In this document: piece by piece, positions 4,981 through 63,411 of the stretch | Position numbering within the stretch: position 1 is the stretch's first letter | Layout of the letters: the number at the start of each line of letters is the position of its first letter | Made by a program: the position numbers and the translations under genes | Source of the DNA: Octopus vulgaris | Taxonomy: Eukaryota | DNA length: 64,000 nt | Direction: 5' to 3' | Assembly: GCA_951406725.2 (NCBI GenBank) | Contig: OX597815.1 | Location: 194,556,001 to 194,620,000, forward strand | Notes under the pieces: model-generated | What the model was told of the DNA's origin: nothing | The model's input: only the letters and a program-made list of their open reading frames with translations | The model's database searches: none

Positions 4981-6020
4981 TAAGCAATTAAAACAAATCG
5001 GAAAATCGGGCAAAATGTTGCTCATGTCTTTGCCATTGGATAAGAATCACAAGTGCAATATTTCAATTCAGAGGAAGAAAACGGAATCGACTCTGAGAAT
5101 CATTAGTTTTACATCAAATACAAAGGACTAAAACATTAGTCCTTTATATTAGTCAAAGACCAATGAGCGCTTATATTGATCCTGCTCTTCTCAAGTTCAC
5201 ATATGATACAAAGGAATCGAACTTTATACTATCAACGATTAAAACCGTTGCCGTAGCTTCGGCTAGCTACCAGCAGCTTAACTCTTGTTCTACTGCTCAC
5301 ATCATATGAAATCTCTATATTTACGAATATAATCAATATCAAAGCTAAATTCTTAATAAAGATAAAATATGTAAAAAAAAAAAAAAAACGACACGAAACA
5401 GAGGACGAATAAATGGATGTATTGCATATCGATATGCCATGATATTCAATTTTTTAGATGTGCCAACGCACTTGTACTTAGTTTATACTCTTTTACGTCA
5501 AAAATAATGACCTCCGAGCAAAAGTGTGACGTTTTTACGAAACTTAGACTCTTCTTCTGTTGGAGTAAGTACTTTCAGAATTTGATATCCATTACACAAG
5601 ATATTTATTTGAAACTGTTTCAACTTAACATTTATAGTCATCTCCTTAACTTGCACTACAACAAAATTTTCAACTCAGTGAAGTAGTATTCACAAGTGGT
5701 TTCTTCGCTGGTCGTCTTCCTTCTACCCCTTTCGTTGAAGTATTTCATTATTGATAATACTATTCCATGTGCAGCTTCGAATCTAGCACAATCACGGTTC
5801 TATGTCCGTTTCTGAAGAATCTAGAATTTATAAGTAGTTACTGAATTTATTCCATCCATTTTTCTTGTTTCTCTCACGAATAAAATTATATGCTTGTACT
5901 GCCTCTACATTTCTATATCTAACATTTTCTTTTCGCTGGTTGCTACAACATCTCCGCTTCTTTGTCACTTTATATGTTTGATATACAAGTCTCTTGCTCT
6001 TTACCCGAATAGCCCAATCT

Positions 6021-6455
6021 CCGAGCTGGCAGAATCGTCAGCACGCCAGGCGAAATGCTTAGCGGTAATTCGTCTGCTGTTACGTTCTGATTTCAAATTC
6101 CACCGAGGTCGAATTTGCCTTTCATTCTTTCGGGGTCGATGAAATAAGTACCAGTTACGCACTGGGGTCGATACAATCGACTTAATCCGTTTGTCTGTCC
6201 TTGTTTGTCTGTCCTTGTTTGTCCTCTCTGTGTTTAGCCCCTTGTGGGTAGTAAAGAAATAGAAATATGTATTTCGTCTGCCGCTACGTTCTGATTTCAA
6301 ATTCCGCCGAGGTCGACTTTGCCTTTCATCCTTTTGGGGTCGATTAAATAAGTACCAGTTACGAACTGGGGTAGATCTAATCAACTTTATCCGTCTGTCT
6401 CTCCTTGTTTGTCTCCTCCATGTTTAGCCCCCTGTGAGCAATAAAGAAATAAATA
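6021..6455 (+). mobile_element. SINE family A, dimeric copy
   Basis: Head plus two core and tail units. Confidence 0.8.
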
Positions 6456-7140
6456 AATCTCCAGTCATCCTTTAAATTCTTCCATCCATTCCTCCATTCG
6501 GTCCTTCCTTCCTTCCTTTCCTTCCTTCCTTCCTTCCTTCCTTCCTTCCTTCCTTCCTTCCTTCCTTTCATCCATCCATCCACACAACACCCCTCTCATA
6601 CTCTTACCCACTGTGCCTCAAATTTCAACGGGGTTTACGTTATTTATTCTGCAACTATCTAGTAGCAAAACTTTAGCATTTTCTACCAAAGTACAACAAT
6701 ATACACGTATTCATACATACAAACATACATATCCCCTACACATACATACATACATACATACATACATACATACATACATACATACATACATACATACATA
6801 ACATACATACATACCTACATACGTACATACATACATACGTACATATATACATACATACGTGCATACGTACATACGTACATACGTACATACATACATGAAG
6901 TCAACTGTGTGTAGAAAAAGATGTCTACTCTATCCCCTGGGTTTCCGTTATGAATAAAAGTTATTGACCTAAAATTCACACCGGTATCTTTATTCGAACT
7001 GGGTTGACGATCTTAATAGGACATGGTAACGTACATATATGCATGCAAACATACACGCATACATACATGCATACATACATACATACATACATACATACAT
7101 ACATACATACATACATACATACATACATACATACATACAT

Positions 7141-7385
7141 ACTCTAGCCAGATTACAAGTTCAGGTTTATATCTGTAATTATTGGAGCCCTGAGATATGT
7201 AACACACTGCTTAAATATCACTCTTGAGAAATTAGGCTTCAGAAAGGAAAAAGCTAATTCGAAGACTACAGATCCAATCCATCAGTGGAACGGTAAAAAT
7301 CTGTAAAACTTTCCAGAAATTTATCATTTAAATATATATGTGTCTATATATACAACTATATGAATGAGAATATATACATAAAACG
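7141..7385 (+). mobile_element. 3' end of an REL-endonuclease LINE (Dong/R4-like), adjacent to (CATA)n
   Basis: Translates to PDYKFRFISVIIGAL.YVTHCL...KLIRRLQIQSISGTVKICKTFQKFII*. Homologous to 28239 and 33131. Confidence 0.65.
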
Positions 7386-7471
7386 TTCAAATATGCACAT
7401 ACATACATATATACATACATGCATGCATGCTTACTTACATACTTGCATGCATACATACATACATACATAAC

Positions 7472-7567
7472 ATGTTGATGTTGAAATTCCAATGAAGGAG
7501 CCTTGGATCTAGATTGGAAACCGGTTCTTTCTCTACTGGCAAGAAACCTCGGAATAAATTGAATAAC
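7472..7567 (+). repeat. ~95 bp dispersed repeat associated with (CATA)n
   Basis: tgttgatgttgaaattccaatgaaggagccttggatctag.ttggaaaccggttctttctc; also at 32643-32741 (+) and 22185-22281 (-). Confidence 0.75.
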
Positions 7568-7951
7568 GACATACATACATATATGCATACATACATACAT
7601 ACATACACACATACATAACATACATAAGTTCACATGCAGTACGTGCACACGCACATACACACACATATATGTGTAGAGAGATAAATATATATATTCGTAC
7701 ACGAATATCAACGTTCATACGTTGTAACGCAAGACATACTTTGATATTAAGACGCGTGCAATTAACGTTCATCCGGAGGCAAGACTCTAAATCATACAAA
7801 TATAGCGATCTTGAAAGAGGCTGATATTACATTCAAATGTTTCATCAAAGCCATCTACACATCATTTACGCTTTAGTTTTTAACATACATACCACAACAA
7901 AATCAGCAACCCAACCACCACTTCAGCTAAAATTCATACTTGACGTACACG

Positions 7952-8059
7952 AAAAATAAAAGAATACTTTACGAATTTGCGTGTCGTCCTTGCGCAGGAG
8001 ACATACAAATCATCTCTGTATCGTTCTAGCTTTAGAATATGTACTGCGGAATATATAAA
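7952..8059 (-). pseudogene. U6: Degenerate U6 snRNA copy 1
   Basis: Minus strand reads TTCCGCAGTACATATTCTAAAGCTAGAACGATACAGAGATGATTTGTATGTCTCCTGCGCAAGGACGACACGCAAATTCGTAAAGTATTCTTTTATTTTT, colinear with metazoan U6. The ACAGAGA box is kept; the AGC triad and 5' stem are altered. Confidence 0.9.
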
Positions 8060-8611
8060 AATTGGATAGAATGGAGAGAGCACTTTAAATCATAAGCTCG
8101 CTCGATCAATCCTAATTTGAGCAAAACAACAACAACAATCATAACGGCAACAGTATCAACATCAACATTAGAATATTAGACATTTCATACTTGACTTCAG
8201 CTAAAAATATTTTAAAGTGCAAGTCAAGCAGATTGCTAAATTAATCTTAAGTATTGAATGTTCGGAGCCAATATATGCAAATAATATTTCTATGAATAAT
8301 ACAATTAATAATGTTAGTTTTGATAATTTTAAAAAACCAAAATAATATGAAATAAAAGAGCTCTCAAGCTGAGCTTTGCGTGAAATACAATCACGATTAA
8401 TATTTGTCGAAGATTTTTATAAACATCATCGTATATCTATAGATATTAAATTTAAATGAGACAATAAATAGATGACATCGTCAAGGTCCTGACTGCCTGT
8501 AACAGCTGTGCAACGAGAAAATTGTACGAGTCATATATTCTAGTAATTTGAGTCTAAAAGACATAATTTTGTGCAAAGTCTGAATAAACTATGGACTAAA
8601 TCTGCCAAATA

Positions 8612-8842
8612 TAATAATAATAATAATAATAATAATTGTGTACAGTGCTCAGGTGCACTACAACTCATCTAAAGTGTATATATAATCAGGTGTAGTTTCG
8701 GCGGATTTCGGAAAGCATGAGGGCCTTAAAGGATGCAGTGTCATGGCAGTCAACAACTGACGCAGGCAGTTTATTCCATGCTTCAGCAACTCTGAGCGTG
8801 AAAAAATGTTTCCGAAAGTCATGGGAGCTGTGTTGTTTTCTG
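8612..8842 (-). mobile_element. CR1-like LINE 3' fragment with (TTA)n tail
   Basis: Minus strand translates RKQHSSHDFRKHFFTLRVAEAWNKLPASVVDCHDTASFK, the FF..RV...WN.LP...FK C-terminal motif of CR1/L2 ORF2. Confidence 0.8.
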
Positions 8843-9629: not shown

Positions 9630-9737
9630 AAAAATAAAAGAATACTTTACGAATTTGCGTGTCGTCCTTGCGCAGAAGACATACAAATCATCTCTGTATC
9701 GTTCTAGCTTCAGAATATGTACTGCGGAATATATAAA
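9630..9737 (-). pseudogene. U6: Degenerate U6 snRNA copy 2
   Basis: Near-identical to 7952-8059 at an offset of 1678 bp. Confidence 0.9.
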
Positions 9738-28560: not shown

Positions 28561-29189
28561 CAGACAGATCTTCACATACATACATACATACATACATACA
28601 TACATACATACATACATACATACATACATACATACATACATACATACCTGCATACATACACACACACATACATACTTATATATATATATATATGTATATA
28701 AAAATAAATATAAGAGAATGGTCACTATGTGGCTCATTCTAGCACTAGAAAATCCAAAAGGTTTCAACCACAAAAATACATGTTTCCTATGAAAGTCAGT
28801 ACGATTGTTAGCTCACACGAACAGGGCAAATAAAAAAATAACAAAAATACAGATTATTTTGGGACAATTGTTTCGCTATTAATGAATTAAATGTAATTTT
28901 ACTTACAAAAAACCCACTTGTAGCTCCTCAGCCAAAACTATCTGGATGAAATCCACTCAATCACACGCCAGATTTTACCATAACGATAAATACACGTGTG
29001 GTTCAATTGATTACATCCGACGTTATAATTCAAATGCCCTTACCAACAGCGCGCCAAACTTTCACGGAAACAAGTACTACATTTAGAAATAAATGTAGCA
29101 TAATTATAATTATATATATATGTATATATGTATATATATATTTCTGAATGTAATTATTCAGTTTATTTCAAGATTTCTCGCCATGATAG

Positions 29190-50005: not shown

Positions 50006-50044
<39 letters not shown>

Positions 50045-50053
<9 letters not shown>

Positions 50054-50487
50054 TAAAAAGAATTCCAACCTTGTCTGATTTTCACGTTTTATTTACAATC
50101 TTATAATGATATATTATAAGATAATATATTATAATTGAATAAAATAAAATGAAATAGTAGAATGTTAAATATTCATTCTGATTGAACTAGTACTTTCATG
50201 CATTGAATTCTGCAATCTTCGGGTTCATGTAGTAGTGTTGACAGTCATGCTTCACAATTTTTGACAGTCAAAAATTGTGAAGCATGACTGTCAACACTAC
50301 TACATGAACCCGAAGATTGCAGAATTCAATGCATGAAAGTACTAGTTCAATCAGAATGAATATTTAACATTCTACTATTTCATTTTATTTTATTCAATTA
50401 TAATATATTATCTTATAATATATCATTATAAGATTGTAAATAAAACGTGAAAATCAGACAAGGTTGGAATTCTTTTTATTAATATAT
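50045..50487. mobile_element. Apparently perfect palindrome (221-bp arms, 1-nt spacer at 50266) carrying hammerhead motifs
   Basis: Centre tttttgac-a-gtcaaaaa; arms are reverse-complementary out to the flanking (TA)n. Confidence 0.9.
50305..50349 (+). ncRNA. Type I hammerhead-like motif (U4C variant)
   Basis: TGAAC-CCGAAGA-t-TGCA-gaattcaa-TGCA-t-GAAA-GTAC-TA-GTTCA; palindromic AGTACT. Confidence 0.6.
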
Positions 50488-50547
50488 TCCTCTATACACA
50501 ATCACACACACCCATATATATATATATCTATATATATATATATATAT

Positions 50548-50960
50548 ACTCTTTACTCTTTTATTTGTTTCAGTCATTTGACTGCGGCCATGCTGGAGCA
50601 CCGCCTTTAATCGAGCAACTTGAACCCGGGACTTATTCTTTTGTAAGCCCAGTACTTATTCTATCGGTCTCTTTTGGCCGAACCGCTAAGTAACGGGGAC
50701 ATAAACACACCAGCATCGGTTGTCAAGCAATGCTAGGGGGACAAACACAGACACACAAACACACACACGCATATATATATGCGTATACATATATACGACG
50801 GGCTTCTTTCAGTTTCCGTCTACCAAATCCACTCACAAGGCATTGGTCGGCTCGGGACTATAGCAGAAGACACTGTGGTTGGTTAGCATGTGGTTGGTTA
50901 GCATGTGGTTGGTTAGCATGTGGTTGGTTAGCAAGCTACTTACCACACAGCCACTCCTGC

Positions 50961-50963: not shown

Positions 50964-51016
<53 letters not shown>

Positions 51017-51018
<2 letters not shown>

Positions 51019-51470
51019 TTCAGCAACAATTTAGATCCAAATGAATATGGTACTTAATTTAGATGCACCAGAATTTTGTATGGTGTTATCCATAAAAATT
51101 TGCAGGGTGATTATAATCAAAAATAAGCAACAAGACTGACTCCGGTAATTTGGTACAATTGTTTCGCACTACATCATTTTATTAAAAATTGTAAGTATTA
51201 CAGCAGATTTAAGATGCTGAGTGCTCATCAGCCAATTATATAGGTTTTCCAATAATACAAAGGCTTCCAAATCAAGTAGTAACATTATAGAGAAGGTAGA
51301 TATACAGATACTACTTGATTTGAAAGCCTTTGTATTATTGGAAAACCTATATAATTGGCTGATGAGCACTCAGCATCTTAAATCTGCTGTAATACTTACA
51401 ACTTTTCATTAAATGATGTAGTGCGAAACAATTGTACCACATTACCGGAGTCATTCTTGTTGCTTATTTT

Positions 51471-51472
<2 letters not shown>
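51017..51472. mobile_element. Fold-back element (arms 51118-51281 / 51309-51472) with canonical hammerheads, in (TA)n
   Basis: 164-bp arms with a few mismatches and a 27-nt spacer; homologous to 62830-63347. Confidence 0.85.
51353..51443 (+). ncRNA. Type I hammerhead ribozyme with long stem-loop II
   Basis: TGG-CTGATGA-GCACT...AGTGC-GAAA-CAATTG-TA-CCA; canonical core and GUA site. Confidence 0.8.
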
Positions 51473-51535
<63 letters not shown>

Positions 51536-51936
51536 ATGCCGAAATAGCAGTCGAAATTCTGACTATAAAACCACGTTAAGTGTTCATATCGCACCATGAG
51601 GTAAAGCGGAGGGACAAAACAAACAAGCAAAAATTATTGAATAATTCAAGATCCAAGGATTTCTGGTTCTGCTTTAAATAAGCTTTACCGTCATCAATTG
51701 AATATATCTAGATTCATTAATGTTGGTATAAATTGTGTTGAAAACTGAGGACGATGATTATTATGACGGTGATAATGATAGCAATAATAATAATAATAAT
51801 GTTGATATTATGTTTATTCGCCACAATAGCAAACATATTTTTCATTATTAATAATAATAATGGAGGTGGCGGTTATTATTACTATTATTACTATTTCTAT
51901 TATCATTTTGAGGAAGACCTGATGGTGCTGGAGGGG

Positions 51937-51937
<1 letters not shown>

Positions 51938-52008
<71 letters not shown>

Positions 52009-52178
52009 GTGATGATGATGATGATGATGATTATGATCATGATTGATAACAACAAAAACAATAATAATAATGATAATAATAATGATGAAGATATGATGAT
52101 GATAATAATAATAATAGTAATGATGATGATGACATTAATGATGATGATGAGGATGACGACGACGACGACGACGATAAC

Positions 52179-52223
<45 letters not shown>

Positions 52224-52312
52224 GATAATAGATAATAATAATAATAATAAGAATAATAATAGTAATAATAATAATAAGAAGAATAAGAATAAGAATAAGA
52301 ATAATAATAATG

Positions 52313-52349
<37 letters not shown>

Positions 52350-52356
52350 TAAAAAA

Positions 52357-52391
<35 letters not shown>

Positions 52392-52415
52392 TAATAATAA
52401 TAATAATGATAATGA
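51938..52415. repeat. (AAT)n/(GAT)n compound microsatellite
   Basis: Read directly from the sequence. Confidence 0.95.
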
Positions 52416-52846
52416 CAAACAGTACTGATAATAATGTTATATTTATTTACCACAATAGCAAATAGAGGAAGGAGATAGACAATGTACAAGAAAACAGTAG
52501 GAGATTTGTAGCGAGTTTAGACGTTTAATAAAAAACATTATGTAAATGATATGACAATGTAAGATAAACACGCTCACCCAACAACACACACACAAACACA
52601 TACATACACACACACCCATACGCGCGTACACACACAGGCACACGCACGCACACATGCACATTACGCACACACAAACACGCGTACAGGCACACGCTTATGT
52701 TTTAAGCTTATATCTTTATCATTTGATTTATATGAAATAAAATTAAAACGCACGCACACGCACACACACACACATACACACACATATACGTAAACACATA
52801 TATACATATATGTTTATATAGTTATATATATGATATATAATAAACA

Positions 52847-52917
<71 letters not shown>

Positions 52918-52979
52918 ATATATATATATATATATATATATAGGTATATATATACGTGCATATACGCACATATACAAGC

Positions 52980-53023
<44 letters not shown>

Positions 53024-53052
53024 ATGTATTTATATATGTATTCATTTTATCA

Positions 53053-53109
53053 TTTTCATTTTATCTAGTTTCAGCTCACGAACTGTGGCCATGCTGGGGC
53101 ACCGCCATT
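53053..53109 (-). mobile_element. Extreme 3' tip of the CR1-like LINE seen at 35187
   Basis: Reverse complement of aatggcggtgccccagcatggccacagttcgtgagctgaaactagataaaa. Confidence 0.75.
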
Positions 53110-53199
53110 CAAAAATCCTTGTGCATCGGCCTGGAATGTATGTATATATATATATATATATATATGTATTAATATATATATGCATATATGTATATATAT

Positions 53200-53242
<43 letters not shown>

Positions 53243-53253
53243 CTATCTATGTA

Positions 53254-53292
<39 letters not shown>

Positions 53293-53959
53293 ATATATAT
53301 ACACGTATATGTATGCATGATGTATGCGTGAGCGTATATAAATGTTTGTGTGTGTATTGCTAGATACCTAAACAGATTACTTAGGTAGATCTATCAATGT
53401 AAATAGATAGATATATGATAATCCTTTGTTACATAACAAAGAAGACCACTATTGAGTAAAATTCTCTGCCCGTATTATAACCCAGAGTTCAATTATTTTA
53501 TTTTTCATTTCAAATATCGACTCTTACGATTGAATCAACTGTTTGAAGTGGTTTAGAAATTTCCTCAGGAGTAAAATCTCATGAAAAGACTGTTGTTGAT
53601 ATTTTTTATACAAATATTCGTAATAACAACATTATGGTAAACCATCGCAACAACCATAAATAAACAATAATCAGAATGACAGCAACGAGAAGGAAAATAA
53701 CAATTGCAAAGATAACGACAATAATAAGAATAACTATAATGGGTTCAAATGTTGACAGAAGACCAGCAGTTTTTTTTTTAAGGGGAGGAGAAGTCGATTA
53801 CATCGACCACAGTACTTGGACTGGTCCTCACTTTTATGACCCCGAAAGGATGAAAGGTGAAGTCGGCCTTGGCGGACCTGGAAGTGAGAACGTAGTGAGG
53901 AAATTCCTCGAAACACTTTTTCCGGTGTTCTAACGAACCTGCCTGTTTCCCGCCTTATT

Positions 53960-54190
53960 ACCTATTTCTTTACTACCCACAAGGGGCTAAACATAGAGGG
54001 GACAAACAAGGACAGACAAACGGATTAAGTCGATTATATCGACCCCAGTGCGTAACTGGTACTTACTTAATCGAAAGAATGAAAGACAATGTCGACCTCG
54101 GCGGAATTTGAACTCAGAACGTAGCGGCAGACGAAATACGGCTACGCATTTCACCCGGCGTGCTAACGTTTCCGCCAGCTCCCGCCTTAT
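53960..54190 (-). mobile_element. SINE family A monomer
   Basis: Family A head, core and tail on the minus strand. Confidence 0.8.
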
Positions 54191-54329
54191 TACCACCACC
54201 ACTACCACCACCTGATCGAAGACCAGCATTCATTTAATACCACCTGATCGACGACCACGATTCATTTAACAGCATTCTACATTCAGGAATAAAGAAGACC
54301 CTCCAAATACACGCAGTCTGCCTGATATT

Positions 54330-55410
54330 TACCTAATTCATCACAGAGTCTGTAACATGCAGATGGGTCGTGAACATTAAGTTTAACACTTGTTGTAACG
54401 TACAAGATACTGGACATCAAGACATTGAAGATGTTGACCACAGATTAGATGCACCACTGGAAAATAGACGTGGACAGGCCGTACATAGCAAGGGCTTTAG
54501 AAAGACGAGATCCTGGCAAAAACAGAAGACCTGATACCCCGAATTCTAAACCATATGATTTGCTCCATTAAGACAGAAGCATGGTATTTCGAAAATGTGT
54601 TTGATGTCCCCGAAAAGGAACTTACACCAAACGATCGAGGCAGATTGGAACACTATACGCAGCTTCGGCTGCACAAAGCAGAAAAGGTAGTGAACAGAAA
54701 ATGCCCAGATCGGATACAGGATGCAGACGTCGGCTAACTGCATCACAACGGTGGCATCATAGTACTGGCTTGAAAATGCAGATAGAAGGTTGGATAATCG
54801 CTGCATCATTTCAGAGACTTGCAACTACAGACTATCGTCATCGCCTCAATAAAGATGGATTGGATCCACAATACAAGATTTGTGAAAATGTGAAGAAACC
54901 ATCATTTATCTTGCCTCTGGATTCTTGGGACTAGCAAAGACCAAATGCAGTCACTGGCATAACAAGACTGTGACCTACCTGCAATGAAAATATGTCGGTG
55001 TTTCCAAATCAAAGCAACTGAGAAATGGTATGAACATCAACCGAACATTAGTCATTGACACCATTGATATTACTATACTTTGTAATGTGCCTATTTGCGC
55101 TGACAGAGAGATAAAGACCAAAAAGCCTGACATCGGTATGAAGGACATGAAGGTAGATAGAAGGTGTCTATTTATTGATATCGCGCATCTTCCAAAAGAA
55201 AGACTCCATGAAGTCACAGCAAAGCTGACCTATTAGAAAAGCTTGTAGATCGAAATCGGCAGGTTATGGAATACGAAGGGCGACCGAAATGATAATCAGT
55301 TGTTAAAGTTGTACTGTGACCTATGAACAAGTCAGTAGAAAAGATAACTAGCCTTGTCGCGGGCAACATCACTAAGAAGATCATTTTACTTGAAACAGTT
55401 TACATGCTAC
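54330..55410 (+). mobile_element. Decayed Dong/R4-like LINE 3' region (zinc knuckle and REL endonuclease)
   Basis: LKMQIEGWIIAA...YRHRLNKDGLDPQYKICE and TILCNVPICADREIKTKKPDI...CLFIDIA, matching the (R/K)PD..D REL motif; several frameshifts. Confidence 0.8.
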
Positions 55411-55564
55411 TTATTACGCGTACGAACATACACACATACATACACACATGCATACATACATACATACATATGTCTGTGCTTGTCTGTATGCACGTGTGTG
55501 TACGCGTGTATTTAGATTAGAGGTTGTGATGATCACGACGAAGAGACTAACTACGACATAAACA

Positions 55565-55591
55565 ATAATGACAGTAACAGCAACAACAACG

Positions 55592-55667
<76 letters not shown>

Positions 55668-55719
55668 GAAGAAGAAGAAGAAGAACAACAACAACAACGA
55701 CAACAACAACAACAACAAC

Positions 55720-55776
<57 letters not shown>

Positions 55777-55821
55777 AAGAAGAAGAAGAAGAAGAAGAAG
55801 AAGAAGAAGAAGAAGAAGAAG

Positions 55822-55858
<37 letters not shown>

Positions 55859-55860
55859 AG
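55565..55860. repeat. Compound (AAC)n/(AAT)n/(AAG)n microsatellite; the block order occurs twice
   Basis: Read directly from the sequence. Confidence 0.95.
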
Positions 55861-56666
55861 GATGCAAAGAAGAAGGAAATTTAATAGAACTACATTAGAT
55901 AAGGCCACAAAATGAGAGCAAAAGAAAGAAAGAAAAAAATATAAAATTGAAAACAAAACGGAAAGTTTCAGAACGGAGGAAAAGTAGAGACGACTGATAA
56001 TAAATCTTTTTTTATGAGAAGGGTTAATTACATTTAGAAGTCTGAAAGAAAGAAAAAAAATATTCAACGAAATAAAACAAGGAAAATAAAAATTAACATA
56101 ATAAATAAACTAGAAAATATTGAAAATTATGTAAACAGTTAAAAAAATCCAAAAATTTGCATGACTAAACAATTATAAAGATATACCAAGCGAAGACTAT
56201 CCGAAAACCAACCCCTAGCTAAGTTAGAGTCTTCAGTGTTGAAAGTAAACTCTGATTGAATCGGAGATAAATCAATAAAGTCTTGAGCGTACACAAGCAT
56301 ACGAGAGTATAAAATAAATAGAAATATATAACCAAACTTCGTGTGTGTGTATTTGAGAATTGAAATATATTGAGAAAAAAAAAATATTTATGAAATGAAA
56401 TAACTTACGGCAGAGAACGAAGAAACGTTACTGTTCTCATCATAGATTCTATGCGAAAACAGCAACAACATCATCATCAACAACAATAACAACAAGGGCA
56501 GCAATGACAATGTTAATAATTCAGAGATGCCCCAGAAGAATTCTACTAACACAATTCAATTTAGGTTAATTCCGTGCAGAGTCGCCTTCGTATTCTTGCA
56601 ATAGATGTTGGATATGACAGGACAAATGACAATGGGAACTGTAGCTAACTGATGCAGACACGGCAC

Positions 56667-56742
<76 letters not shown>

Positions 56743-56794
56743 CACTGGAGACAATGCAGAGTTTCCTAACTCTGGTCTAGGAATATCATTATTG

Positions 56795-57437
56795 TTTTCT
56801 ATTCTAGGCACAAGGCTCGAATTTTTGGAATAGAAGGCCAGTCGATTAGATCGACCACAGTACACAGCTGGTACTTAATGTATCGAACCCGAAAGAATGA
56901 AAGGTAAAGTCGACCTCGGCGGAATTTGAACTCAGAACGTAAGGACAAAGTACCGCTAAGCGTTTCGCCCGGAGCGCTAACGTTTCTTATTTCTTTACTG
57001 GTCACAAGTAGCTACACACAGAGGGGACAAACAAGGGTAGACAAACGGATTAAGTCGATTACATCGACCCAGAGCATAACTGGTACTTATCTAATCGACC
57101 CCGAAAGGATGAAAGGCAAAGTCGACCTCGGCGGAAATTGAACTCAGAATGTAGCGGCAGACGAAATACCGCTAAGCATTCCGCCCGGAGCGCTAACGTT
57201 TCTTATTTCTTTACTGCCCACAAGGGGCTAAACACAGAGAGGACAAACAAGGACAGACAAACGGATTAAGTCGATTATATCGACCCCAGTGCGTAACTGG
57301 TACTTGCTTAATCGACCCCGAAAGGATAAAAAGTAAAGTCGACCTCGGCGGAATTTGAACACAGAACGTAACGGTAGTCGAAATACGGCTACGCATTTCG
57401 CACGGCGTGCTAACGTTTCTGCCAGCCCGCCACCTTA
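56795..57437 (-). mobile_element. SINE family A, three tandem units with a probable TSD
   Basis: gaatatcattatt on both sides (56781-56793 and 57440-57452). Confidence 0.8.
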
Positions 57438-57998
57438 TGAATATCATTATTAATTATAGAATTCTTAGGAATATCATTATTAACTATAGAATTCTATAGA
57501 AAAAATATAATTTTTTCATTACCGTTACTTTACATAAAAACACCAATGAATATTTTACCGTTCTTTCGGAAGTCGAACAAAACAAAAACATGTCCAGAGT
57601 TAACAACTCAACTATCAAAGATCAACTACAGTCTAGCTCCTAACAATGTAAGATTTCATTCCATTGTCCATACTAAATTTGTTTATTAGCGCTAATGAAC
57701 TTTATTCTAATTTTAGTTAATTGGAAAGTATTTTAGCTTCATCACTTCAAGTATGGCAGTTCCTCACATCTCTTTCTCTCTTTCTCTCTGTCTGATACAT
57801 ATGCATATAAGTGCACACATGCACACATATACACGCACTTATGTATATATAAGCATACAGGTGTAATAATTCTTCGTCAAACATCCGTGCTTCCTTCTGA
57901 TTGAATCTCAATTTGTCTCTCAATCTCTGAAAATAAAGAGATGTGACCATGTATGGGACGTCTTCGCTTATAAACCATTTCAGTACTTGTTACAAGAA

Positions 57999-58268
57999 GG
58001 AGCACTCCGTCGGTTGCGACGACGAGGGTGAAATTAACGTGCAAGTGGCTGAGCACTCCACAAACATGTGTACCCTTAACGTAGTTCTCGGGGAGATTCA
58101 GCGTGACATAGTGTGTGAGAAGGCTGACCCTTTGAAATTCAGGTACTACTCATTTTTGCCAGCGGAGTGGACTGGAGCAACGTGAAATAAAGTGTCTTGC
58201 TCAAGGACACAACGCGCTGCCGGGAATTGAACTCCGAATGCCCCTAACCACTAAGCCACGCGCCTTCA
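57999..58268 (-). mobile_element. SINE family C
   Basis: Minus strand aaggcgcgtggcttagtggttagggg...gtccttgagcaagacactt...cacttgcacgttaatttcac. Confidence 0.75.
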
Positions 58269-58365
58269 CTTGTTACAATTGTAACAACAGTCGGACTTAC
58301 CATCAAGGAGATTTTCCGTTGTTGATTTAGCTGCTAGAAATCGCTGCTAAGCAACCTTCAAATAA

Positions 58366-58550
58366 TCTTTTCTACTCTAGGCACAAGGCCCGAAATCTTT
58401 TGGGAGGGTACCAGTCGATTAGATCGACCCCAGTATGCAACTGGTACTTAATTTATCGACCTCGATGGAATTTGGACTCAGAATGTAAAGACAGACGAAA
58501 TACCGCTAAGCATTCCGCCCAGTGTACTAACGTATCTTCCAGCTTGCCGC
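58366..58550 (-). mobile_element. SINE family A, decayed
   Basis: ctactctaggcacaaggcccgaaa tail and core remnants. Confidence 0.7.
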
Positions 58551-59668
58551 GTTACAACCTTCAAATAGTAACGTACTACTTTAACACGGGAAAGCCATTA
58601 CTTATACTAGTCGGTCATGTCACAATTGCTCATAATTCTGCTCAATGAAGATTCAACCGTGGCTAAAGAAGATCAATAAACTGGAATGCGAGACAGAGTG
58701 AGTGTCGCTACGAGTTCTTTAAACCTGTTGGAAATCGCAACCATTTTCCCCTTAATGTCTCACCTTACGAATGTTTTGAAAAAAGTTAAGTACATGCTGG
58801 ATAATTTAGTCTTCAGCATTACATTGTCTCAAAGTAAATATATATAAACTTCAGGCAACTTCTAGACATAATACGATTTTAGTCACATTTAATCTAGGTT
58901 TAGCTTTGCGAATTATTAAAACTGAAACCAAATTACAAGCAAATCATGTGATGGTACATTGATGCTCTAAGTGACCGAAACTTATTCTTGCTTTAGTCTC
59001 GTGTTAAAATTTGTTAACGCTTTCTAACGCATTAGGAAAGAAAGTGACACGCCTGCTATAATGCGTTTGATCATAGGCCTGCACGGGTAGTTTTGAGATA
59101 AACAATAAAGCAGTTAAGTATGTGAGACAAATTTGTTTTAGTAAACAAGTTTAATCTCCGATTTCCATGGTAAAAGCACTTGTTATTGTGAAGAAAGAGA
59201 GCGCAGTCAAATGTTATGTATGTGTTATGAGATCAAAGTTGTTTTGCTGTGACTAATCCGTCTTTTGCTATTTTTTTTTATCACAATGTCTCTAGAGTCA
59301 CTTTGGTCAATGACATCTTGTTTTCAAGGCTGTTGAGTGAGAACTGGTTAATATTTTTAGCAGGTGGAGCGACTACATACAGTTTTCTTTGACGAATCGT
59401 GAAAAAGGTGTTAATGTTGTTTAATTTCGTATGAGCTCTAACCGAACAAAGGCGTCTCATCCATGGTCATCTTTTCTGCATATATCAGGGACTCCATGGT
59501 GCAATATGTACATTAATTGCAATAGGAGAGTGGCACTTGAGTGGAACTTGACTGTTTTTTCTCGCAAGATAGATAATATATATAAAAACTATGTAATAAA
59601 TAAACAATCACAGGAACATACACTCATGTTATAAATGTATGTATGGCAGTCAGCAGATATATATATAT

Positions 59669-59709
<41 letters not shown>

Positions 59710-59710
<1 letters not shown>

Positions 59711-59985
59711 GGCACATCGCCTAGTGGTTAGAGCAGCGGACTCGCGGTCGAGGGATCGCGGGTTCAAATCTCAGACCGAGCGATGTGTGTGTTTATGAGC
59801 GAAACACCTAAGCTCCACGCGGCTCCAGCATGTGGTAATGGCAAACTTCTGCTGACTCTTTCGCCAAAACTTTCTCTCACTCTTTCCTCCTGCATCTTGC
59901 AGCTCACCTGCGACGGACCTATACGCCAAGGATACCGGGAAACCGACCCTTATGAGCCAGGGATGGCTCGAGCAGGAACAAACAA
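59710..59985 (+). mobile_element. tRNA-derived SINE with the head of 23589 and a different 3' half
   Basis: cctagtggttagagcagcggactcgcggtcgagggatcgcgggttcaaatctc...gaaacacctaagctccacg; tail ...gcaggaacaaacaa. Confidence 0.75.
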
Positions 59986-60577
59986 TAATATATGACAGTA
60001 CAAACAGAGAGAGGCAATTATGCGGATAAACAAATTAAATATAACAGCTTGGGTTTGACATACAATATATATATATATATATATAAATCTTATATAAATC
60101 TTATATAAAATAAACTTGTATGTGTATTTCCTTTTCACGCGAAAATTTGACCTCGGTTACATAATAAGGTCTTCCGTTTATTATTTTGTTTATTAAAAAT
60201 AAATAATATTGCTTTATATATATGATTCACCTTTTTTACAAAGGTTTCTCAATGTCAACTTCCGCTATAGACGTAGCAACGGCGAAATTTTCCGTTTTCA
60301 GTTGCAAGACCTCTCACTCTCTATTATGATGTTTTCATTTCAAGTTTTAATTCTCCATTTGCAAACAACTACGATAAATTACTGAAAGAAATATTTACTA
60401 AGTTCACTTATTCAAATATTCAGTATAAGAACTTTTATTTATACGATCTTTTTATTTCGTGTTTAGTTCATTCATTGTTTGCAAAGTTCTCTCTCCCTCC
60501 CTCTCTCTTTCTCACACACAAATCAGTTACACACGCACCTTTGTAAGTACGTTTCTACACATTTATGCATGTGTGTG

Positions 60578-60638
<61 letters not shown>

Positions 60639-61034
60639 GAGTGAGTCAATCAAAGGGTGTGTTGTCATGTATATTACATATATAAATAGATATGCACACA
60701 TATTTTTTGTATGTATGTGTGTGAGAGAGAGAGAGTGGCATTCACTCACTCGCTCTCTCACACATACATACATACATACATACATACATACAAAAAAGAC
60801 GTATGCATATTTATTTTTGTATGTATGTATATATGACAACACACCTCTTCTCTTTCTCTATCACATCCATTTCATCTGATGTTTGATACTGTGTGTGATT
60901 GTGTGCGGACGTGTGGTCGTGGGCGTTCCACAATCGCCATTTATTTCAATCACTCTTGTGAAGATATTCACGTAACTGGTTTTTTGTATTTAGACATCAT
61001 TTTAATTTTCGACAAAGTTTCCGAGAACAATGTT

Positions 61035-62300
61035 CCTACACTCTATCAGAGGAGTGGGGATGGATGTAAATGATCAGTATTCTAGAGTAAAGCAAAGACG
61101 AGTACATGTAGCCACAATCAATGTTGAATTCTGGAACTCTGTTAATTTGGTTAAGTATGTTTGCAAATATATAAACAAGGAATCTGTAACATAAATTCTT
61201 ATGCAGAATGGCAGTCAGCAGATGAATAAAGATGACGAAGATGCACAGTATGACAGAGGAAGATACATGAGTACCAACGAGGCTTTTTAGTGCATCTTCA
61301 ATTTTCCCATTCATGAGAGGCACGCAGCCAAAATTCATCTGAGTGTCCATCTAGAGCAGTGCTTTTCAAACTTTTTTGCTGGAGCGGAACCCCAAGGAAA
61401 CAATGGCTCGAGGAAACCCTGTGCAATAATTTAATAGTTTTATGCACACATATCTGCACAGGAGAATTAAAAATTACTGCTGATTTTAGCAGTGTTGTAA
61501 CTTCTTGCGGAACCCTGGTTGAAAACCACTGATCTAGAGAATGGTCACAGGGTTATCTTTACAAAACAAACAGGTTTGCAACAAAAGAAGCCACCCTTAT
61601 TGCCTTTTTTAAGTTGTGTCAAGTAGTTCAAGATGCAAGAAAACTCCTTTAACTAAATTACCCATGTATTACACAATAACCCTTGTATAAACAATAACTG
61701 GCACAAGAGGATATGTAGGGCTGATGCTCTTACATGTGTTTACAGTGTCCCCCCCCCCCCAGCCAAGCACAATGCTACTACTTACGGCTTCTTTTGCATG
61801 AAGTACGTGGTCCCAAACCATTCCAAGATCCGAAGAGGGTAAATTGTCATGTGTGTGAAACTTATAAGTAAGCATGCGATCAGACAGATTTTGTTTTAGA
61901 AAATGATGAGCATTCGGACCTTGCATTGACTGAAGCATCAGTATCAGATTCTCCAAGGAAACTCCGTAGCCTTTTTGCAATTATACTGAACACGTGCCAA
62001 CTTGACAGACTCCTACAGCTTTGGATGTGCCATTGTGAGGACATGGCTGAGGATTTAAAGTATGCAGTTCAACAGGAAAACCCAAATAACAATATTCAGT
62101 TCTCCGAAACGATTTTTAACCTAGCACTGATTGAAATTGACGATCAAGTTTCGGCCATAGGAGGCAAAAATTTGGAAGAGTCTGGTTTTTGATTGCCAAA
62201 ACAAATCGTCAAATTAAGGATTTAACTTCAAGAGACATAATAAGAGAGACAAATTATGACATTAAAGTCTTGTCTGCAATTGTGAATGAGCATGAACCTA
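61035..62300 (+). pseudogene. Helitron Rep/helicase relic
   Basis: Fragments INVEFWNSV.LVKYVCKYINK, GRYMSTNEA, FPIHERH...HLSVHLENGHRV, TLIAFFKLCQ, EASVSDSPRKLRSLFAIIL..C, FNLALIEIDD, RETNYD, all colinear with Helitron RepHel. Confidence 0.85.
61357..61531. mobile_element. hAT (Charlie/Buster-type) MITE, 175 bp
   Basis: TIRs cagtgcttttcaa / ttgaaaaccactg; 8-bp TSD ATCTAGAG at 61349-61356 and 61532-61539. Confidence 0.9.
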
Positions 62301-62330
62301 AGCACTGTGTGCATATGATAACATTTTTCG

Positions 62331-62377
<47 letters not shown>

Positions 62378-62542
62378 CATTATTATTATTATTGAGTGAG
62401 AGAGCAGTGGATGCTCTCTTTCATTCTTTTGTTGTCTTACCATTTCTATTAACACACACACGCACACACACACACACGCACACACACACACACATATATA
62501 TAAACCAATTTCAACGTATTTCACCCAGATTTGACGTCGATG

Positions 62543-62668
62543 TTACTCTTTTACTCTTTTACTTGTTTCAGTCATGTGACTGTGGCCATGCTGTTGAGCA
62601 CCGCATTTAGTCGATCAAATCGACCCCAGGACTTATTCTTTGTAAGCCTAGTACTTATTCTATCGGTT
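62543..62668 (-). mobile_element. SINE family B, 3' part
   Basis: tactcttttacttgtttcagtcatgtgactgtggccatgctg... Confidence 0.8.
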
Positions 62669-62714
62669 AGTTTGTTTTGAAATAAAGAACTTGATTAGCT
62701 TAATAATCCTAACT

Positions 62715-62746
62715 TAATCCCGGGCAAAGCCGGGTTAAACTGCTAG
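62715..62746 (+). mobile_element. Helitron 3' terminus
   Basis: Hairpin cccgg-gcaaag-ccggg, then 8 nt, then CTAG|T. Confidence 0.75.
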
Positions 62747-62793
62747 TAGTACATATTATGCGATAAATAATATATGTTATACAATAAATAATA

Positions 62794-62829
<36 letters not shown>

Positions 62830-62832
<3 letters not shown>

Positions 62833-63345
62833 GGTTAAGTAATTGAAATTCTAGTGAATTCTAAAGAATTCACATGAATATGGTCCTTAACTAGGATGCA
62901 CCGGAAATCTATATGGTGTTAACCATACGACAAGTGGGGTGATTACAAATAGGAAAAAAGCAACAAGAATGGATTAAAATCTCGGTACGATCGTTTCGTA
63001 CGAGGACATCTTTAATAAGCTACAAAAAATGCAGTGAATACAGATGGCTCGTACTCGTCAGCCGAAAAAACATCAGAGAATTCCCAAACATCAAAAGGGG
63101 TAGATACAAAAGAGGTTGTAAGATTAGCTGCATTGAAGAAAGTTCGATTCATGGAGATCCGATGAAAGGTTTTAAACTTACAACCTCTTTTGTATCTACC
63201 CCTTTTGATGTTTGGGAATTCTCTGATGTTTTTTCGGCTGACGAGTACGAGCCATCTGTATTCACTGCATTTTTTGTAGCTTATTAAAGATGTCCTCGTA
63301 CGAAACGATCGTACCGAGATTTTAATCCATTCTTGTTGCTTTTTC

Positions 63346-63347
<2 letters not shown>
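62830..63347. mobile_element. Fold-back element (arms 62951-63122 / 63177-63347) with canonical hammerheads, in (TA)n
   Basis: About 172-bp near-perfect arms with a 54-nt spacer; homologous to 51017-51472. Confidence 0.85.
63234..63317 (+). ncRNA. Type I hammerhead ribozyme with long stem-loop II
   Basis: TCGG-CTGACGA-GTACGAG...CTCGTAC-GAAA-CGATCG-TA-CCGA; canonical core, 7-bp stem II, GUA site. Confidence 0.85.

Positions 63348-63411
<64 letters not shown>

Follow-up and report, generated by a model that had tools for sequence, protein, structure and literature searches.

The window analysed here is a 64,000-nucleotide (nt) stretch of the Octopus vulgaris genome (assembly GCA_951406725.2, contig OX597815.1, positions 194,556,001 to 194,620,000, forward strand), a host genome of 2.8 Gb that is rich in microsatellites. 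It holds two small features, A and B, each an inverted repeat between (TA)n runs with one hammerhead motif per strand. Judged from their sequence, both are 5'-truncated 3' ends of Penelope-like retrotransposons (PLEs) of two related families with Hydra-clade protein motifs, inserted inside (TA)n. In each copy a long-ended arm, which reaches 137 nt (A) or 154 nt (B) past the GUA of the hammerhead, stands head-to-head with a short-ended arm that stops at +36 (A) or +35 (B); the long end extends 101 nt (A) or 119 nt (B) further, an interval referred to below as the tail. An earlier note made from the window had described both features and these arm ends; its coordinates and sequences all check, with a single shift of the long end of B from 62830 to 62832 that reflects TA ambiguity. 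The features are as follows, in window positions.

50964..51016, unstranded: (TA)n target sequence, left flank of A
51017..51310, minus strand: long arm of family A, a 5'-truncated PLE 3' end, about -156 to +137 from the ribozyme cut
51017..51117, minus strand: 'tail' of family A, the interval of about 101 nt that separates the two end points; it contains two small conserved hairpins
51154..51234, minus strand: hammerhead motif of family A, long-arm copy, core 51231-51154, predicted cut after 51154
51309..51472, plus strand: short arm of family A, about -127 to +36, with a 2-nt overlap with the long arm at the joint
51356..51439, plus strand: type I hammerhead motif of family A, core 51359-51436 with stem I, CUGAUGA and GAAA, predicted cut after 51436
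51366-51424, plus strand: stem-loop II of that motif, 59 nt
51428-51435, plus strand: palindromic helix III of that motif, 8 nt
51473..51528, unstranded: (TA)n target sequence, right flank of A
62794..62831, unstranded: (TA)n target sequence, left flank of B
62832..63177, minus strand: long arm of family B, about -191 to +154
62832..62949, minus strand: 'tail' of family B, about 118 nt, which runs on into the 5' untranslated region (UTR) in full-length copies
62980..63067, minus strand: hammerhead motif of family B, long-arm copy, core 63061-62986, predicted cut after 62986
63177..63348, plus strand: short arm of family B, about -136 to +35, with a 1-nt overlap with the long arm at the joint
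63232..63319, plus strand: type I hammerhead motif of family B, core 63238-63313 with a 6-bp stem I and CUGACGA, predicted cut after 63313
63245-63301, plus strand: stem-loop II of that motif, 57 nt
63305-63312, plus strand: palindromic helix III of that motif, 8 nt
63349..63407, unstranded: (TA)n target sequence, right flank of B

Both families are multicopy (3303 and 1902 first-look candidates for A and B), with a constant 3' end and a variable 5' truncation, and the two window copies are inert by-products. Walking upstream from related copies led to the parent of family B, which has an uninterrupted open reading frame (ORF) of 1072 amino acids (aa) at L101:3157-6372 and a second open copy in L104. 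The ORFs of these two loci (1091 and 1090 codons) each encode a reverse transcriptase (RT) followed by a GIY-YIG endonuclease (EN) in a single frame, with YRDD and IIYKC..YVG, as in EN+ PLEs. The parent motifs are RWR, DKTG, YRDD, CNCRIKSKC (a CxCx5C linker), IIYKC...YVG, CQLC and CIH, and there is no Cx2-5CxxC. Hydra elements are diagnosed by RWK, DKT, a CxCx5C linker, lack of CCHH, and CxxC and CxH around E/N; all of these are present with K replaced by R in the first, and by its protein motifs the parent ORF thus fits the Hydra clade as PMC8557442 defines it. The copies of A and B also have the (TA)n insertion preference of that clade and the layout of EN+ PLEs, namely a partial-tandem pseudo-long terminal repeat (pLTR), an inverted 5'-truncated copy and a tail at one end. 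In full-length copies of family B, which are about 4.7 kb long and carry Asn-rich inserts, one copy of the ribozyme closes a 3' UTR of 1.3 kb and a second lies in the 5' pLTR. The ATG follows about 208 nt after the cut of the latter, and the 'tail' is here simply read-through 5' UTR. The inserts lie between RT and endonuclease (27% N at residues 490-930 of ORF protein P0001) and leave the frame open, as has been described for Adineta Penelopes (PMC3846280). DNA upstream of family A codes for the same type of C-terminal endonuclease (L017, L081, L082, L099), with weak profile support from a below-cut-off Pfam GIY-YIG match (E 0.002) in the L082 fragment. An Atlas feature search returned eukaryotic clusters, some with RVT_1 in 16-48% of members, and a metagenome scan gave no relative of the endonuclease. 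Neptune identity was rejected, as the parent ORF has no Cx2-5CxxC linker, and so was membership of Neptune, Nematis or Naiad, whose Cx2-5CxxC linker and CCHH are missing here (Naiads also have an N-terminal EN). A and B are not non-LTR retrozymes either, since both trace to coding elements and not to non-coding tandem monomers. Long open frames of about 980, 840 and 960 aa in several other Hydra-type families point to recent activity of more than one lineage. At L101 itself about 1 kb of flank is duplicated in inverted orientation on both sides at 99% identity (43-2897 versus 5848-8680), by assembly artefact or secondary rearrangement.

Of 56 copies of the A/B lineage sampled by ribozyme core only, 34 stop at the short site and 19 at the long one, and 3 have other ends (six rows mis-binned by alignment in TA runs were re-binned by hand). 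Two end points are therefore fixed within the lineage (53 of 56), and they are not measured from the cut. The earlier note had proposed a mechanistically fixed point of priming or termination; fixation is borne out, with two points in place of one, and the cut does not serve as the ruler. These points likely mark where RNA-to-DNA copying starts. In read-through copies a TATA or ATAT word lies just after the site, clearly so at 9 of 13 lineage sites and depending on the variant at 2, with 2 sites lacking it; the background is 11% per position, and the 13 sites come from lineages that are not fully independent. The tail is about 115-190 nt in four other lineages. The PLE value of 30-40 nt, which is typical and not defining, is exceeded in A and B.

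The arms are paired in a near-strict manner. All 31 inverted rows combine a long with a short arm, 21 of which had been selected for the long arm (L070, a read-through, was removed); among A/B-lineage insertions not selected for the tail the count is 19 of 20 (P ~2e-5 versus a best-case 50%). Such insertions could arise as follows. The GIY-YIG domain would nick both strands of a (TA)n target, after which one target 3' end would prime at the long site (137-154 nt past the ribozyme cut) and the other at the short site (about 35 nt past it), probably aided by pairing of the target TA repeat with the UAUA word next to each site. Both cDNAs would stop early and be joined by microhomology; most arm joints show an overlap of 0-10 nt. 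The template would be uncleaved at this ribozyme, because both arms copy through the GUA. A precedent is the element PAc. Here the two target strands are each cut and extended, RT begins at two internal sites on either side of the tail, uncleaved RNA serves as substrate, and hammerhead ribozyme (HHR) cleavage is not needed (PMC11167929). The boundaries of PLE 'tails' have been published (PMC11167929, PMC8557442), and the end points of A and B match them. RNA ends at 51436 or 63313, which the earlier note would have looked for, are not to be expected from the window copies, whose transcript would fold into a long hairpin. Among 29 interpretable ORF-bearing loci, none has its 5' end at the cleavage site: 14 have an intact upstream core, 1 a damaged core, 3 start in loop II and 11 start further downstream (L246 was dropped as mis-oriented, and L259 and L260 count as one locus). 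As a joint reading, truncated Hydra-type PLE insertions formed by two-site priming from both cut target strands are a probable account of A and B, and one we hold with some confidence.

Several observations weigh against this account. On the side of identity, a search of the full ORF or its RT part against Pfam and PDB sequences gave no RT match, and the upstream walk recovered no full-length copy of family A. On the side of priming, PAc initiates in vitro without target homology and has a tail of 30-40 nt (PMC11167929). Two of the 13 lineage sites have no TATA word, and the youngest B subfamily lacks it at its short site (TTTGTAATC in both L238 and the window copy). Single-armed insertions are common, and short+short pairs exist, namely L101, whose flanks are duplicated and which is the single exception among the 20, and L211 and L227 in other lineages. 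The main rival keeps the two end points and changes their cause: the element's endonuclease would cut TATA words in a DNA intermediate, making the ends by resolution and not by RT initiation. Both sites do lie just 5' of TATA/ATAT words that resemble the (TA)n target, the tail has been ascribed to EN-mediated resolution (PMC8557442), and the D. virilis EN needs tail sequence for recognition and cleavage (cited in PMC11167929). Yet RT of PAc starts exactly at the tail boundaries in vitro (PMC11167929), and resolution by itself leaves the long+short pairing of inverted arms unexplained. We regard it as unlikely, while taking it more seriously than any other competing explanation of the ends.

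Two further rivals fare worse. In snap-back, the first cDNA would prime itself and the inverted arm would stop at a fixed terminator 35 nt after the GUA. Self-priming has been proposed for head-to-head PLE repeats (PMC3846280), and the window copies A and B each have a short arm that lies inside the range of the long one, with a joint overlap of 1-2 nt. Snap-back requires such nesting, but in 10 of 30 pairs the short arm outreaches the long arm on the 5' side by more than 30 nt, and by as much as 2.1 kb, and how far one arm extends 5' shows no correlation with the extent of the other (rho 0.19, p 0.30; the long arm reaches further in 17 and the short arm in 14 of the 31 rows). Short ends are also found as single arms. 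Non-nested pairs contradict snap-back as a general route, and we consider it very improbable; what the genome shows speaks for two priming events, independent of each other, with long and short in a fixed order. A constant short end could also come from a ruler of 34-36 nt that starts at the ribozyme cut or fold, as the wording of the earlier note suggests, and short ends do fall at +34 to +42 in the A/B lineage and family 4. However, the same ribozyme type in other lineages is followed by short ends at +105-107, +159-160 and +161-166, and the distance shared by A and B is explained by their homology through that stretch. Short and long sites of other lineages lie at +42/+232, +160/+285, +164/+278 and +106/+224, so that the short site ranges from +35 to +165 after the GUA across lineages, with a short-long spacing of mostly 100-130 nt. 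End points mapped against the GUA are thus not random within a lineage, as the earlier note had expected, while the distance itself is a property of the lineage; this variation rejects the ruler as a general model and leaves it with a very slim chance.

The ribozyme of A and B is a predicted type I hammerhead with a GUA site. As had been noted, both features have an intact core; a copy of the motif lies on each of their strands, and the CUGANGA, GAAA and NUH core is accompanied by covarying helices I and II. The unusually long stem-loop II (59 nt in A, 57 nt in B) recurs genome-wide. Genome patterns in which the core and the form of loop III are fixed and stems I and II are unconstrained gave 12,318 matches (6259+6059) to CTGANGA-N44-66-GAAAC-RATY-GTH versus 12 (6+6) in a reversed control, 1,457 versus 222 for a looser pattern with a Y..R loop III, and 4,877 versus 41 with a stem-loop II of 8-43 nt. 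The Rfam hammerhead models report nothing at gathering score in the window and nothing at E<=10 in 62800-63400. Stem-loop II folds better than its shuffles (z<-1.65 in 21 of 31 lineages; interior z<0 in 29 of 31), and its length varies from about 13 to 66 nt across families; it is likely a structured extension that, because of this variation, is dispensable. The inner CATC/GATG pairing claimed for loop II appears in the predicted fold of both copies and is less constant in relatives: within the A/B lineage the inner helix is 74% and the distal hairpin 94% paired, neither significant after tree correction. Stems I and II form in the predicted fold of B (z -3.40); the minimum-energy structure of the plus-strand copy of A is not a monomeric hammerhead (z -1.16). 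At the base of stem II, many subfamilies of the A/B lineage have U-U or G-U in place of G-C (15 of 29 unpaired), as in one HHR reported from an axolotl retrozyme. Family C, the third in the window to carry a long-stem hammerhead, lies at 28700-29090 on the minus strand of the window (HHR core 28931-28863, 50-nt stem-loop II, GUC site). Across the genome it is arranged in tandem as a unit of 535 bp (1645 candidates) and ends at about +160 and +285, like a retrozyme-type non-autonomous PLE derivative.

Compensatory covariation between A and B had been taken as a sign of selection on RNA structure. As a two-sequence argument this is weak, because CAATTG is a double CpG decay of CGATCG and because the pairs of the A/B lineage mostly fail tree correction. 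Pairing as such is clear, with 88% of cells paired in 29 A/B-lineage sequences versus 26-50% in slid controls. When pairs are tested by permutation on a tree, in a procedure that resembles R-scape and is not R-scape itself, E<0.05 is reached by only 1 of the 22 that were proposed; covariation within this lineage is mostly confounded by descent. The wider sample was drawn from the first 100 listed long-pattern matches (94 distinct when identical tandem copies are removed) and 20 Y..R-pattern regions chosen by eye (28 motifs, 2 dropped as off-pattern). When the same test is run on 31 sequences that represent its lineages, ranks 1-11 among 1081 column pairs go without exception to proposed pairs, namely pairs 1-5 of stem I, pairs 2-5 of stem II and the two pairs of loop III. 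Care must be taken with the last, as the patterns constrain the outer loop III pair in both cases and the inner pair in the long pattern, so that this covariation is partly built in. Stem I pairs 1-5 exceed arm shuffles, and 30 of 31 clusters at 80% identity have a Watson-Crick pair 1. Stem I is longer than the earlier note had it, with 3-4 bp in A and, in B, 6 bp that include one G-U. The tail hairpins are conserved with little variation (1 of 11 pairs covaries) and are uninformative on covariation. It is the wider lineage set, and not A and B or their lineage, that supports selection on the RNA structure of the parent elements. The least probable of the rivals, that the hammerhead match is a neutral relic whose covariation reflects common ancestry and CpG decay, could draw on the single significant pair within the A/B lineage, on the CGATCG to CAATTG change and on the lack of ORF-bearing copies starting at the cut, but is hard to square with a stem I pair 1 for which 22 of 23 lineages (<70% identity) have a Watson-Crick combination, all four types being represented, or with loops TGCA, CGCG, CATG, CTAG, TATA and TCGA that CpG decay of GATC cannot yield.

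What had been described as stem III is not a stem of the monomer. Modelled as a hairpin (2 bp plus tetraloop) it costs +2.4 kcal/mol, versus -6.4 (A) and -10.0 (B) for an 8-bp duplex; it is an 8-nt palindrome with a self-complementary loop, which by these energies would form an intermolecular dimer helix. The covarying bases are adjacent and cannot pair within one strand, which points the same way. A hand count of the inner loop III pair in 100 listed Y..R-pattern rows gave 52 Watson-Crick, 31 central GA and 17 other, the last close to the roughly 15 expected by chance from the control. Thirty of the 31 central-GA rows come from one CGAG family (e.g., L217, L222, L227 and L236), in which a tandem G-A in the dimer helix would replace Watson-Crick pairs. 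Tandem G-A pairs are a stable motif. A type I hammerhead of this kind would cleave only as a dimer through the 8-bp helix III, formed by two pLTR copies or two RNAs, and dimer cleavage in the precursor RNA would probably be slow or protein-helped. Dimeric hammerheads have been described for PLEs (PMC4209133; PMC6765202). One speculative extension, to which we give a low probability, is that the PLE hammerhead may dimerise the template via helix III, giving an asymmetric complex of two RNAs and two RTs in which one strand is primed per site with UAUA:TATA pairing. If true, this would explain the near-strict long+short pairing and would give PLE hammerheads a structural role akin to the retroviral dimer-initiation loop, added to cleavage or replacing it. 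Naiads weaken the case, since their tails and inverted arms arise without canonical HHRs.

Other features of the window can be listed briefly. At about 50040-50490, between (TA)n runs, about 440 nt form a palindrome that is nearly perfect, has a single nucleotide at its centre and contains no hammerhead core or ORF; querying the genome with 50040-50265 returned no match, not even its own locus, and is therefore uninformative on copy number. An abundant dispersed repeat of about 300 nt that resembles a short interspersed element occurs in both orientations at 50550-50830, 62555-62670 and many other places. Two diverged U6 small nuclear RNA copies, probably pseudogenes or variants, lie on the minus strand at 7953-8058 and 9631-9736 (73 and 68 bits). 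Matches to miRNAs at A and B in the non-coding RNA scan reflect the inverted repeat.

The function of hammerheads in PLEs and the origin of their inverted ends and tails are questions on which this genome bears. It offers more than 12,000 long-stem motifs missed by Rfam, intact young ORFs, and a spacing of 100-120 nt that separates the two end points clearly. The kind of element is known, and ribozyme, tail and inverted arm have each been published for PLEs; the ribozyme and tail seen here are variants. Closest to the parent of A and B are the Hydra-clade PLEs of PMC8557442, which share the single ORF with RT and C-terminal GIY-YIG, RW[K/R], DKT, CxCx5C, no CCHH, CxxC and CxH near the end, (TA)n targets, a type I HHR in the pLTR and the inverted 5'-truncated copy. 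In that account loop 2 of Hydra HHRs measures 3-10 nt, helix III has 1-3 nt at its centre, and the elements are 'generally <3 kb'; here stem-loop II measures 44-66 nt, helix III is perfectly palindromic over its 8 nt, and the element is about 4.7 kb with Asn-rich inserts. A longer loop 2 has a precedent in the plant element PLE-X1_sMoe (about 35 nt; PMC8557442 supplement). The long stem-loop II form itself is not described in the literature searched, and PMC5785218 or the supplementary figures of PMC4209133 may show such variants. The minimal or dimeric type I hammerheads of metazoan PLEs (PMC4209133; PMC6765202) resemble A and B in their short helix I, larger helix II and palindromic helix or loop III, in covariation between families in one genome, in thousands of copies, in predicted dimer cleavage, and in motifs on opposite strands 100-700 bp apart; helix II of A and B differs in being extended into a bulged hairpin with a distal stem. 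A 'half-core' spacing of 35-50 nt has been noted in Naiads. Non-LTR retrozymes (PMC7229834; bioRxiv 10.64898/2026.07.22.740005) likewise have a type I HHR and are PLE-related; family C of the window, with its tandem unit, resembles one, whereas A and B are truncated ends of ORF-bearing elements. PAc, a Poseidon element of Anolis (PMC11167929), shares with A and B an AT-rich target, two fixed 3' end points downstream of the HHR cut that bracket the tail, and uncleaved RNA as the template, the last of which would also apply here. It differs in its 30-40 nt tail, versus 100-120 nt here and up to 190 in one lineage, in sites that lie in the ORF and not in the 5' UTR, and in non-homologous initiation, versus TATA microhomology at most sites. 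What sets the octopus elements apart from published ones is thus a stem-loop II of 44-66 nt, a tail of 100-120 nt, arms that combine long with short almost without exception (19 of 20) and end points with TATA words.

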